Both the position numbers and the translations under genes were made by a program. The notes beneath the pieces were generated by a model. It worked only from the letters and a program-made list of their open reading frames with translations, had not been told where the DNA came from and did not search any database. Below are positions 13,439 through 23,813 of a stretch of DNA of 60,076 nucleotides, piece after piece (positions within the stretch are counted from its first letter, which is position 1; the number at the start of each line of letters is the position of its first letter). This DNA comes from a virus (taxonomy: Duplodnaviria; Caudoviricetes): IMG/VR virus record IMGVR_UViG_3300018933_000005, positions 1 to 60,076 of that record; one strand, written 5' to 3'.

Positions 13439-13990
13439 TCACAGCGCCCCGAGCACCGCCAGCAGCTTCCGTGTGCCGGCGGGCCCCCAGTCGGGGCAGA
13501 CCACGGTGATCTGCTGGGCGCGCTCGATGGCCCGGCAGGCGTCGCGGTGGACGACGCCAGACCAGATGTTCCGCAGGTCCCGGACGGGGAGACGCCCACC
13601 GAACCAGGTGAAGTCCTGGCCGCCGACCATGGTGCAGGGCATCCGCTCGTCCTCGATGACGCGGCAGCCGTGGCGGGAGGCGGCGCGGCGGATGCGGTCG
13701 GCGACCGCGGGTTCGGCGAAGCCGCACACGGCGGCCCGCTGCTGCCAGCGCTCCCCGTTGTGGCCGCGACCGTCGCTGCCGGGCTGGGAGTTCCAGGTCA
13801 GGTAGCCGGCCCGGTTGGCGGCGGCGAGCTGCGGCATCAGCTCCCGGGTCTCCTCATCCGGGCCGCAGCCCGGGGTGTAGCCGGGCTGGGAGCCGATCCG
13901 GCCCTCCAGCCAGCAGGCGGTCAACTGGCCTAGGTCGGCGAGGGTGCGGGCCTCGGCCCACAGCTTGCGGTCGGGGCGGGGCATGCGCAT
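13439..13990 (-). CDS. Hypothetical protein (DUF6919-like)
   Basis: PDEET...N.AGYLT..SQPG...WQQRAAVCGF. Confidence 0.65.
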   Translation of the reverse strand: MRMPRPDRKLWAEARTLADLGQLTACWLEGRIGSQPGYTPGCGPDEETRELMPQLAAANRAGYLTWNSQPGSDGRGHNGERWQQRAAVCGFAEPAVADRIRRAASRHGCRVIEDERMPCTMVGGQDFTWFGGRLPVRDLRNIWSGVVHRDACRAIERAQQITVVCPDWGPAGTRKLLAVLGAL

Positions 13991-14012
13991 GGTCTTCTCC
14001 TTCGGTGGTGGG

Positions 14013-14492
14013 TCAGGCGGCGTCGGCGGCGGCTTCGTCGAGGAGCCGGGCGGCCATGCGGCCGTCCCGGATCAAGCGGTCGTTGGCGGCGGGCACGGTC
14101 TCCACGTCGGGCCCGAACTCGCGGCGGATCGCGTCGAGCAGCACCCGGCACGCGTCGTCGGCCACTCCCCCGCCTTCGGCCTCGGCGCGGATCGCGCCGA
14201 TGAGGCACACCCGGCCCTGCTCGTCGCGCAACCGCCCGCTGCACCAGCCGCCCTCGACCCGGCGCGCGGCCCGCCACAGGCAGACGGCCACCGGGGCGGT
14301 GTACGGGCAGGGAGGCGGCTCGGTGGCCGGCAGCTCAACCGGGAGCCGGATCACGTCGGCCAGGTCCAGCCCGGTGGTCTGGATCCGGGCGTCGACGGCG
14401 AGGGCGGCCAGAGCGAGGCGGTCGTCGAAGCCGAGCGGCTCGGCGGGGGTGCGGGTGCGGGTCGGAGGGGCGGTCAGGGCGGGCGCGAGCAT
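14013..14492 (-). CDS. Hypothetical protein (DUF6197-like)
   Basis: GWCSG....G.VCLIGAIR...ND motif. Confidence 0.65.
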   Translation of the reverse strand: MLAPALTAPPTRTRTPAEPLGFDDRLALAALAVDARIQTTGLDLADVIRLPVELPATEPPPCPYTAPVAVCLWRAARRVEGGWCSGRLRDEQGRVCLIGAIRAEAEGGGVADDACRVLLDAIRREFGPDVETVPAANDRLIRDGRMAARLLDEAAADAA

Positions 14493-14529
14493 GATCGGAC
14501 TCCTTGGGGACGTTTCGGGTGATTTCGGG

Positions 14530-14680
14530 TGCTCAGCGGCATGGCGGTGCTGCTCCGCCGCAGGTCAGAACTGCTCAGCTCCTTGCTCAGGGGCTGCTCA
14601 GAGCAGATCCTGAGCAAGGCTTGAGCAGCCCCTTGAGCAGCTCTGACCTGCGGGGATTCATCGCCGAGCAGAGCTGAGCA
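14530..14680. repeat. clt-like array of TGCTCA(G) repeats forming a large imperfect palindrome
   Basis: TGCTCA at 14530, 14572, 14584, 14595 (TGCTCC 14551); inverted TGAGCA at 14611, 14622, 14634, 14675 (CGAGCA 14665); immediately 3' of traB. Confidence 0.8.
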
Positions 14681-14703
14681 GGGGGATGATCAGGGCATAA
14701 CGG

Positions 14704-22298: not shown

Positions 22299-22380
22299 TC
22301 AAGCTCTGATTTGAACCTAGCCCCTCGCTTCCGGGAGTGTCAAGACGGAGCTTGAAAGTCATGTCGCGCGCCCCTACCCT
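22299..22380. promoter_or_regulatory. Divergent promoters with two palindromic operators
   Basis: Minus TTGACA-N18-TAGGTT (22343-22314); plus TTGAAA-N17-TACCCT (22352-22380); TCAAG-N6-YTTGA at 22299 and 22340. Confidence 0.7.
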
Positions 22381-22386
22381 CAGGGC

Positions 22387-22641
22387 ATGACCAGCCTCCT
22401 CGACACCGCAGCCGCCGCGACCGCACCCCTCGACAGCGCCCTCGGCGACATCGACGAACCCGTCGAGCGGTACGAGGCGATCCGCGAGCTGGAGGATCAC
22501 TTCGAGCGCTTCATCAAGGGGCAACTCCAGAAAACCGCCCTCTGGATGAAGCACGAGCGCGGCATGACCTGGCGAGAGATCGGCGAAGTCATGGGCGGGG
22601 TCACGGCCCAGAGAGCTGAGCAGATCTCCCGCGGCGTATGA
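22387..22641 (+). CDS. Small HTH regulator (probably leaderless)
   Basis: GMTWREIGEVMGGVTAQRAEQI. Confidence 0.8.
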   Translation: MTSLLDTAAAATAPLDSALGDIDEPVERYEAIRELEDHFERFIKGQLQKTALWMKHERGMTWREIGEVMGGVTAQRAEQISRGV

Positions 22642-22773
22642 AGGGGAGTGCGCCATGCCTCCGAGTCAACGCCCGGCTGCGCCGTGTCACCATGAGCGGC
22701 CGGTGCAGTGCCAGCGCACCGGCAGTGCAGCCGTAGTGCAGTAGGCCGACGACCACCCCCGGGAGGGGCCACA

Positions 22774-23406
22774 GTGGACATTGTCGACACGTGGACCGGG
22801 CGGACCGCCTGCGCGCTCCAGGCCGCGCTGCGGATGACGAACGAGGCATTCGCCGCCCACCTCGGGGTCGCGGTCCGGACGGTCGCCGGCTGGCACGCGC
22901 AGCCCGACATCGTCCCCCGGCAGGAGATCCAGCAGGCACTCGACACGGCACACGAGAGGGCGGGTGAGGCGGTGCGGCGGAGGTTCAGCGTCCTCGCCCG
23001 GCCGGCAGGCGCGGGCCAGCCGCAGGCGCTGCGGGTCGCCATAGCCGTCGTCGTGAAGGGCGAGGAAGTCCTCCTCGTCTGCCGCCGCGGGGACGGGCAT
23101 CTCACGTGGCAGTTCCCGGCGGGGATCGTGAAGCCCGGCGCCGCGCCGGAGGCGGTCGCCGCGCAGGAGACCCACGCCGAGACCGGCGTGCACTGCGCGA
23201 TCCGCGAACACCTCGGAAGCCGCATCCACCCCTCAACTGGCGCTCTGTGCGACTACTACCTCGCCGACCACCTGGCGGGCGAGCCCAGCAACCGAGACCC
23301 GATCGAGAACATGGACGTCGCCTGGGTGCCCATCCGGGCGCTCTCCCGCTTCATCCCAGCTGACCGCATCTACCCGCCCGTCACCGCCGCACTGGAGGCC
23401 GCATGA
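22774..23406 (+). CDS. XRE-HTH fused to a degenerate Nudix domain
   Basis: GTG 22774 after [42 protein letters not shown]...QETHAETGV. Confidence 0.85.
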
Positions 23407-23813
23407 CCGACACCACCACCGACCAGCCCGGGATCTCCGCCGCCATCGTCGTCCAGGACGGACGAGTCCTCATGGTCCGCCGCCGCATCAAGGAAGGCGA
23501 ATTGATGTGGCAGTTCCCCGCCGGCGGCATCGAGGACGGCGAGACACCCGAGCAGGCCGCGGTGCGGGAGACCCAGGAGGAGACCGGCCTGACGGTGGAG
23601 GCGGTCAAGCTCCTCGGCGACCGGGTCCACCCGAAGACAGGCCGGCAGATGTTCTACACCGCCTGCACCGCCGTCTCCGGCGAGGCTCACGTCGCCGACG
23701 CCGACGAGCTCGACGCGGTCGCCTGGGTCGCCCACGGCGAGATCGCCGACTACGTGCCCTACGGCCTGTTCGAACCCGTGCAGGAGTACCTCGACGGCGA
23801 ACTGGCCCGCTGA
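23403..23813 (+). CDS. Nudix hydrolase
   Basis: Complete Nudix box [23 protein letters not shown]. Confidence 0.95.

Follow-up and report, generated by a model that had tools for sequence, protein, structure and literature searches.

The 60,076-bp virus record IMGVR_UViG_3300018933_000005 of IMG/VR, the whole of which is referred to here as the window, contains nearly all of the ~60 kb genome of a temperate phage of siphovirus type, in circularly permuted form. Between its early genes and the junction of the inferred cos end with the small terminase gene (terS), it carries a block of transfer-type genes that is an integral, conserved part of the phage, neither an insertion nor a misassembly. 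The block comprises P0001, an FtsK-superfamily translocase of double-stranded DNA (dsDNA), TraB-like in its architecture and context; P0002, an SpdB2-like membrane protein; a conserved array of palindromic 8-mers 3' of the translocase gene; and a pair of Nudix hydrolase genes (Table 1). The most likely function of this module is to move phage dsDNA without virions, within a mycelium and perhaps also from one to another, a reading to which we give an even chance. An earlier note on this DNA had proposed a TraB-type transfer system in an intact temperate phage. The genes and elements it listed were found at or near the places it gave them, as judged by translation, family scans and a hydrophobicity scan. 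The phage itself proved real and essentially whole, with packaging, head, tail, lysis and lysogeny genes and with contig ends that do not interrupt it. The comparison with TraB held for the architecture of translocase, SpdB2-like protein, array and Nudix genes, but not for membership of the classical TraB family.

The translocase and the SpdB2-like membrane protein

P0001 contains the Walker A motif GGGKTG and the Walker B motif FFDEFP, and it matches the PHROGs family phrog_12531, "FtsK/SpoIIIE-like protein", with an E-value of 3.9e-73. One or two N-terminal hydrophobic segments are followed by a P-loop motor (residues ~300-560) and a winged-helix-like C-terminal domain (~625-708). The hydrophobic stretch at ~130-166 in the Kyte-Doolittle scan and the predicted helices at 101-145 and 150-166 point to a putative N-terminal membrane anchor. 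Residues K351, R411, D438 and E439 are invariant across the family. No Pfam family matched P0001, even at E ≤ 10, no NCBIfam family matched the translocase or the membrane proteins, and a sequence search of P0001 against PDB chains returned 0 matches at E ≤ 1. The full-length AF2 model is poor (mean pLDDT 56.6) and its fold matches are thus indicative only; the best PDB matches by Foldseek are TcpA, a conjugation coupling protein, the FtsK motor and EccC (E 6e-6 to 1e-3). Motifs, profiles and fold matches alike identify an FtsK/SpoIIIE-type P-loop translocase domain.

The C-terminal domain was modelled with a pLDDT of 85. Almost all of its 50 best VIA-align matches are winged-helix domains, but with Z scores of at most 6.7, and Foldseek gave no match for the domain at E ≤ 0.001. 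The same region is similar to the C-terminal part of DUF3631 (RepAM-type) proteins; NCBI lists a close homologue of P0001 under the name DUF3631, and PF12307 was matched by 5 of 49 distant relatives. This likeness suggests a winged-helix module common to the pumps and the replication initiators of actinobacterial mobile elements.

For profile comparison by hhalign, an alignment of 97 members of the translocase family was set against each target. The family aligned with Tra of plasmid pIJ101 over 294 columns (probability 99.0, E 3.3e-18) and with pZL12.71c, the FtsK-like protein of pZL12, over 290 columns (probability 98.6, E 1e-15), whereas the alignment with the chromosomal FtsK motor was weaker than that with Tra (probability 97.7, E 1.4e-12, 226 columns). 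Only 277 relatives were found at E ≤ 0.001 in a library of 50%-identity representatives. PF01580 was matched by 18 of the 49 distant family members scanned, several with winged helix-turn-helix or DUF3631-type C-termini.

The gene directly upstream encodes P0002, which has a highly charged, helical N-terminus (residues 1-66), about four hydrophobic segments (~76-97, 101-124, 129-154 and 161-180) and a C-terminal region. In this it follows the build of SpdB2, in which, according to PMC4447253, an N-terminal coiled coil is followed by four transmembrane helices and then by a C-terminal domain.

The repeat array downstream of the translocase gene

The 211-bp gap beyond the stop codon of the translocase gene holds a clt-like array of palindromic 8-mers, first of the CTGCTCAG type and then of the CTGAGCAG type. 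Five TGCTC[AG][AG] words are followed by four oppositely oriented CTGAGCA words, and the two series meet at CTGCTC/TGAGCAG. The 90-bp core of the array (14561-14650) is bounded by inverted CAGGTCA/TGACCTG. The window contains 16 copies of TGAGCAG, compared with 7.7 expected, and five of them lie inside the gap (14493-14703); the 11 copies outside the array have no obvious polarity of the kind seen in the FtsK-orienting polar sequences (KOPS).

The array is conserved with the translocase. A CAGGTC..GACCTG frame, mostly spanning 90 nt, occurs 53-64 nt past the translocase stop codon in 33 of 34 sequences (32 of the 33 related loci), as opposed to 29 of 13,742 windows in the background. The sole sequence without the frame (L019) is similar to P0001 in its N-terminal part only. 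In 21 of the 33 loci, the commonest 7-mer of the gap reaches a count there that no other 215-bp window of the same locus attains. The 8-mer is uniform within a locus and differs between loci, being CTGCTCAG, CTGATCAG, CTGCTCGG, TGATCGG or CTGGTCA, and such concerted change is what co-evolution of the sites with a protein that binds them would be expected to produce. The clt sites of Streptomyces plasmids are short cis repeats at or next to the 3' end of a gene; a conserved array of this kind is present here, and judged by its sequence it is a candidate for the same function.

The bracketing word recurs elsewhere. A second TGACCTG/CAGGTCA pair, with TGAGCAAG and CTGCTGAG between its members, lies at 11441-11504, 70-130 bp from the inferred cos, and a pair is also found in relatives (L040-L066), ~580 nt upstream of terL. 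TGACCTG is thus common to the brackets of the array, to the cos-proximal site and to a site after the array in a 24-kb plasmid. The word TGACCTGC occurs 10 times in the window, compared with 2.8 expected.

The transfer block in related phages and plasmids

We compared 33 related loci, two of which (L004 and L021) represent one prophage from two collections. Among the 27 loci with at least 9.4 kb of sequence downstream of the translocase gene, 13 encode the large terminase subunit (TerL) within 10 kb. These TerL proteins fall in three unrelated clusters, and ten portal genes were found among 43 large downstream open reading frames (ORFs). In all 32 loci with an upstream gene call, the gene directly upstream of the translocase encodes a protein with at least two hydrophobic segments. 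Relatives of the DUF6197 protein are encoded downstream of the translocase in most related loci, and linkage of the Nudix pair to the translocase gene was seen in 9 of the 33. Two layouts of the module were seen among loci L002-L034. In the one found in the window, a translocase of ~690-720 aa is preceded directly by a membrane protein of 360-450 aa; in the other, a translocase of ~745-757 aa is preceded by a membrane protein of 150-200 aa and then by a gene of 410-460 aa.

Homologues of P0001 also occur on two linear plasmids of 24-25 kb, NZ_CP109436 and NZ_CP134204, that have no annotated phage genes. In both, the translocase gene is found downstream of a DUF2637 (SpdB2-type) gene, at a distance of two to three small genes, and NZ_CP134204 contains in addition a GntR gene and a replication-relaxation gene. 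In NZ_CP109436 (L038), the translocase gene is followed by three copies of TGATCGGC, three of GCCGATCA and then TGACCTGCGG, a palindromic array of the TGATCGG class with the same design as in the phages. A plasmid derivation of the transfer module appears, from these sequences, to be the best explanation.

Position of the block in the packaged genome

The continuity of the block was assessed with an independent Logan assembly of the probable source run; this comparison rests on contigs, which do not show read ends. One contig of 20,773 nt corresponds to positions 9000-20761 of the window with 0 differences and spans terL, terS, cos and the translocase gene. A second corresponds to positions 20732-27000 and reaches the early genes; the two overlap by 30 nt and have depths of 16.5 and 14.5. 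Short-sided contig "joints" (20-48 letters per side, 90% likeness) were disregarded as likely cross-matches.

Within the phage group (contigs L039-L067), a common start upstream of terS is frequent. At least six of these contigs, drawn from different metagenomes (L041, L042, L044, L047, L053 and L056), start at one homologous nucleotide, with ACTCGG…CGCACGCTCA, ~40 nt upstream of terS and equivalent to window position 11372; a further one (L061) starts with a divergent version. Two genomes of ~61 kb (G001 and G002; CheckV completeness 95% and 100%) share a right-end sequence homologous to the window just above 11373. The shared starts and right ends look like physical cos ends. G001 (60,962 bp) starts at the shared left end and encodes a translocase 68% identical to P0001 at 5.5 kb from the shared right end, which places the block inside the cos-to-cos genome, at its right end. 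In G002, a distant FtsK-like ORF occupies the same slot. Both genomes have an HNH-like ORF at the right end that is absent from the corresponding gap of the window (11332-11940).

These data bear on whether the block could be a nested independent element, such as an actinomycete integrative and conjugative element (AICE) within a phage, or an assembly chimera. Its gene content is plasmid-like, its coding-strand GC skew differs from that of the head genes, and the second assembly has a unitig break at ~20.73-20.76 kb. Nonetheless, the scan of 15 block ORFs brought up no Rep family, no integrase gene lies in the block, and the repeat families listed include no long near-exact direct repeats flanking it, in agreement with the earlier note, which had seen neither att sites nor a separate Rep around the block. 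The contig that runs without differences from terL through cos to 20761, the overlap with the next contig at similar depth, and the recurrence of the same arrangement, both in 13 of 27 related loci and in a relative whose contig runs from cos to cos, make a nested element or a chimera highly improbable, and the misassembly or independently excising element that the note had named as its possible undoing was not borne out.

Proposed function of the module and its alternatives

In the function that we propose, the membrane-anchored, FtsK-like pump would load as a hexamer on the palindromic 8-mer array downstream of its own gene. In the role of a clt-like site, the array might be read by the C-terminal winged-helix domain of the pump. 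Together with the SpdB2-like, pore-type membrane protein and the small membrane proteins, the pump would then carry the phage genome, circularised or in replication, through hyphal cross-walls and possibly also between hyphae in contact, so that the phage could spread without virions. A role of the Nudix genes may be to curb redundant transfer. The genes and their architecture, the array, the conservation of both, their location within the phage genome and their occurrence on small plasmids are observed, whereas DNA binding, pumping and any transfer are steps that we infer. The combined build of translocase, array, SpdB2-like protein and Nudix genes, the profile similarity of the translocase to pIJ101 Tra and pZL12.71c, the plasmid occurrence beside DUF2637 genes and the precedent of pZL12 support a function in transfer or spread.

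Several observations weigh against this reading. The first of them concern the translocase. PF01580 misses P0001 even at E ≤ 10, although pIJ101 Tra scores 9.3e-10 in the same scan, and the P0001 homologue of another genome (G006) is not among the 15 PF01580 matches of that genome. In a core-motor tree (FastTree, 104 tips, 259 columns, with one classical Tra and rooted on FtsK by choice), the distances from P0001 are 4.54 to pIJ101 Tra, 4.53 to FtsK and 4.28 to pZL12.71c, values that are uninformative at such depth. Since P0001 is about equally far from all three, we call it a distinct FtsK-superfamily lineage, TraB-like in architecture and context and not TraB in the strict sense. Its nearest named relatives in the tree are proteins of small plasmids (clade of 12, support 0.94). 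Placement by profile and tree had been suggested in the earlier note as a check, and its outcome is divided: the hhalign match to pIJ101 Tra favours the TraB assignment, PF01580 does not, and the tree grouping speaks for neither side. The FtsK-like protein of pZL12 (L036, 8658-14545) likewise has no PF01580 match. PF01580 serves as a detection criterion in surveys of AICEs, according to PMC3218068, and screens based on it would therefore overlook the pumps of both phage-borne transfer loci.

P0002, for its part, is called SpdB2-like on its architecture and on two sub-threshold Atlas leads only, a "putative SpdB2" cluster (0.88) and a DUF2637 model (TM 0.48). It has no match to PF10935 (DUF2637) at E ≤ 10 and no other Pfam match, and BLAST found no similarity to pIJ101 SpdB or to a plasmid DUF2637 protein.

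The array folds as a strong hairpin (-53.4 kcal/mol, z -5.75), and none of 200 shuffles was as stable; it may instead serve as a terminator or as a site of processing. The C-terminus of the translocase shows no evident covariation with the 8-mer class across loci, the last 22 residues being identical in the TGATCGG and CTGCTCAG classes. Both the hairpin and this absence of covariation weigh against a simple reading in terms of TraB and its recognition sequences (TRS). In addition, TGACCTG lies ~45 nt inside the cos left end in many relatives, including some that lack the pump (L057, L060 and L062), so that this part of the element is not pump-specific. An array that is a terminator, an RNA-processing hairpin or a packaging (cosB-like) site, linked to the translocase by position only and leaving the role of the latter open to other readings, would account for these features and for the TGACCTG/CAGGTCA pair with TGAGCAAG close to cos. 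A bare hairpin, however, has no need of one 8-mer repeated four or five times in each arm, or of the exchange of all these copies together from locus to locus. Moreover, the array tracks the translocase gene rather than the terminase, as it is kept upstream of three TerL families and in plasmids without packaging genes. We regard an array of that kind as quite unlikely.

Homologues in isolated phages suggest another role. At E ≤ 1e-3, P0001 is matched by 91 records, all below 60% identity. The 30 of these that were sampled down the ranking all belong to genomes of ~130 kb, with ~36-38% identity and one outlier at 24%. These phages, for example Coruscant and Karimac, we take to be lytic phages of cluster BE. 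The Coruscant gene is solitary, with neither an SpdB2-like neighbour nor an array, and the pump lineage can therefore serve another role. The pump might work inside one mycelium, where it would segregate or position phage or prophage DNA (into prespore compartments, for instance, or while DNA is replicated and concatemers are handled) or manipulate host septation and development, with the array as a KOPS-like loading or orienting site; the ftsK-like genes of actinophages are usually interpreted along these lines. The presence of the same lineage in every sampled isolated phage with a homologue agrees with such a role, and a palindromic array in two orientations would suit an orienting or loading site. 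In the group to which the window belongs, by contrast, membrane proteins built like SpdB2 accompany the pump in every case, pump and array stand beside DUF2637 in the 24-25 kb plasmids (one of them with GntR) in the layout of a transfer locus, and the tra locus of pZL12 occupies the same slot. Action inside one mycelium is in our judgement unlikely, though to be reckoned with.

Finally, the module is accessory. Nine phages have both a related TerL and 6.8 kb or more of upstream sequence, and four of them encode a related pump, two at 64-76% identity and two at 36%. This variable presence, the Nudix genes linked to the pump in 9 of the 33 loci (the Nudix protein Pif of pSAM2 limits redundant transfer) and the PHROGs category of the pump family ("moron, auxiliary metabolic gene and host takeover") would be in keeping with exclusion or defence cargo, in which a plasmid-derived pump and Nudix proteins block or expel incoming plasmid, AICE or phage DNA to the benefit of the lysogen. 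Yet the block lies between the early and late operons and is co-oriented, which suggests expression in the lytic cycle, unlike that of a separately expressed lysogenic moron, and a cis array that keeps a fixed geometry and lies on the DNA of the element itself suggests that the pump acts on self DNA. Cargo of this type is very unlikely to be the explanation.

Going beyond the single genome, phages of mycelial bacteria may use plasmid-derived dsDNA pumps as "movement proteins". A whole group of cos-phages, temperate and of Streptomyces hosts, and possibly also the ~130 kb phages of this pump lineage, would push their genomes through cross-walls and contacts between hyphae without virions, and the array would be the loading site of a lineage missed by PF01580. 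We put this forward as a possibility that we rather doubt. If it is true, infection or lysogeny would spread from cell to cell, past receptor-level resistance. Should the module of the window do what its build suggests, temperate Streptomyces phages would have a second, virion-independent route, with consequences for lysogeny, host range and receptor-based resistance; the boundary between prophages, AICEs and plasmids would be blurred. Whatever the function, an FtsK-like lineage escapes the standard Pfam model, so that surveys of AICEs, plasmids and prophages that rely on PF01580 count too few pumps of the transfer type. A cis element also stands out sharply, with a 90-bp core of palindromic 8-mers set at a constant distance from a stop codon, and the sharing of pump and array between small linear plasmids and phages with three different terminases documents modular exchange.

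The phage genome and the remaining genes of the block

Genes of the window (~70% G+C) were called by third-position GC and then scanned against family libraries; ~55 ORFs were scanned, with ~30 small ORFs outside the scan. The set expected of a temperate tailed phage (Caudoviricetes) is complete, with TerS, TerL, portal, major head protein, tape measure, tail proteins, endolysin and integrase (Table 1). A siphovirus tail type is indicated by the long tape measure and by the lack of a sheath match among the scanned ORFs. The nearest protein relatives are all from Streptomyces, and a temperate cos-type siphovirus with a Streptomyces-like host is the best explanation of the genome. No near-identical DNA was found among isolated phages for window positions 1-50000, and the window contains no tRNA genes. 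Neither repA nor parAB was found among the ORFs scanned; an integrase is present instead.

The record is labelled linear, with a CheckV completeness of 86%. Its two ends nevertheless abut within one tape-measure gene, with a few codons missing and without terminal overlap, and the record is therefore a nearly closed circle. As given, the join is one base out of frame, so that a few bases are missing. In the lysogeny region, a 10-bp tandem repeat, GGTGTTGCTC (4.2 copies, 45821-45863), lies in a 708-bp gap downstream of the integrase gene, and these repeats could be arm-type sites of attP.

Upstream of the gene for P0002, the block continues with a run of small genes, one of which encodes a membrane protein with two hydrophobic segments that is a candidate Spd-type protein. 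The run ends at a divergent intergenic region with inverted repeats, a candidate promoter/operator, beyond which lie genes for a small helix-turn-helix (HTH)-like protein and the Nudix pair. A scan for sigma-70-like promoters in 11300-25300 gave 0 sites, as expected at such GC content. Intergenic repeats of 53-60 nt with ~75% identity (20404-20463/20962-21021 and 18980-19032/20991-21043) occur near the unitig break of the second assembly.

Table 1. Features of the window, in order of position
Feature	Position	Strand	Basis or remarks
Tape measure, N-terminal part	1-788	-	matches phrog_971 positions 19-299
Packaging and head genes	4802-11331	-	
Major head protein	4802-6139	-	family scan
Portal	7007-8944	-	family scan
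TerL	9177-10787	-	family scan
TerS	10861-11331	-	family scan
Inferred cos junction	11363-11382		between 11373 and 11372; ~40 nt upstream of terS
DUF6919 gene	13439-13990	-	downstream of array
DUF6197 gene	14013-14492	-	downstream of array
Palindromic 8-mer array, clt-like	~14531-14683		in 211-bp gap 14493-14703
FtsK-superfamily dsDNA translocase, TraB-like (P0001), 708 aa	14704-16830	-	Walker motifs, phrog_12531, profile alignment
SpdB2-like membrane protein (P0002), 373 aa	16846-17967	-	directly upstream of translocase gene
Run of small genes	17983-22170	-	upstream of SpdB2-like gene
Small membrane protein, 72 aa, candidate Spd-type	18535-18753	-	two hydrophobic segments
Second DUF6197 gene	20480-20950	-	
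DUF6907 gene	21730-22170	-	
Divergent intergenic region, 216 bp, candidate promoter/operator	22171-22386		inverted repeats
Small HTH-like protein	22387-22641	+	
Nudix hydrolase gene 1	22774-23406	+	Nudix domain
Nudix hydrolase gene 2	23403-23813	+	Nudix domain
Hairpin	23814-23871		27-nt arms; after Nudix pair
Replication-initiation/HNH-type protein	31899-33071	-	
YqaJ exonuclease and RecT	36587-38274	-	
Candidate xis-type HTH	42575-42931		
Lysogeny region	44280-49462		integrase, GntR-UTRA, second tyrosine recombinase
Integrase	44280-45539	+	family scan
GntR-UTRA regulator	46248-46859	+	family scan
Second tyrosine recombinase	48431-49462	-	family scan
Endolysin	50982-51923	-	family scan
Tail proteins	51984-57587	-	family scan
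Tape measure, C-terminal part	57602-60076	-	matches phrog_971 positions 307-1087

Comparison with known systems

The FtsK/SpoIIIE-like proteins of Coruscant and Karimac share the lineage of the window translocase (36-38% identity over residues ~200-600, phrog_12531). The matches in the ~130 kb phages do not reach its N- and C-terminal regions, the best of them covering 59% of the query. Unlike the gene in the window, that of Coruscant stands by itself among tRNA genes. Phage ftsK-like genes have otherwise been read as developmental manipulators. Our literature search, outside which subscription journals and supplements lay, found no paper on this translocase lineage, on its array or on its conserved place in integrative cos-phages.

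Like AICEs such as pSAM2, the window combines an integrase, a candidate xis, a GntR regulator, an FtsK-like pump, Spd-like proteins and Nudix genes in one element. Unlike them, it has no RepSA, RepAM or Prim-Pol among the genes of the block, its integrase gene lies more than 27 kb from the translocase gene with phage early genes between, and the element encodes a full virion. The contiguous int, rep and tra genes bounded by att repeats that define an AICE are thus not seen in the window.

The TraB/Tra systems of pSVH1, pIJ101 and pWTY27 resemble the window in having one membrane-anchored, FtsK-like pump with a C-terminal domain of DNA-binding type, a repeat-rich cis site at or just past the 3' end of the pump gene, an adjacent SpdB2-type protein with four transmembrane segments and an N-terminal coiled coil, and a GntR regulator elsewhere in the element. 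The window translocase differs from pIJ101 Tra in the PF01580 scan, and the two do not group together in the motor tree, as far as it resolves at this depth. The clt sites of pWTY27, pJV1 and pIJ101 are described as direct and inverted repeats of 5-9 bp; the array of the window is a long palindrome of perfect geometry, whereas classical clt sites consist mainly of direct repeats. Unlike in the TraB plasmids, moreover, the carrier of the module is a phage.

The closest counterpart in this last respect is pZL12, or phage ZL12 (GQ919031), in which a tailed-phage genome and a transfer locus likewise form one replicon. There, the FtsK-like pZL12.71c and large upstream membrane-protein genes lie directly upstream of the packaging and head genes, as in the window, and a divergent GntR regulator is found close by. 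The two elements differ in that pZL12 is a 90-kb circular plasmid-prophage with ParAB, whereas the window is a ~60 kb genome with an inferred cos end and an integrase, in which no ParAB was seen among the part of the ORFs that was scanned. Packaging in pZL12 is reportedly P1-like, from largely random ends. The pumps are remotely related (BLAST E 3e-6 over 71 residues), and the SpdB2-like protein of the window has no BLAST similarity to pZL12.72c or pZL12.73c. The Streptomyces plasmid-phages pZL12 and pFP4 are described in print as both conjugating and forming virions. For phiC31 and VWB, it has already been proposed that SpdB2 homologues spread phage DNA. The reading of the window as a "conjugative phage" is plausible, but not new in kind.

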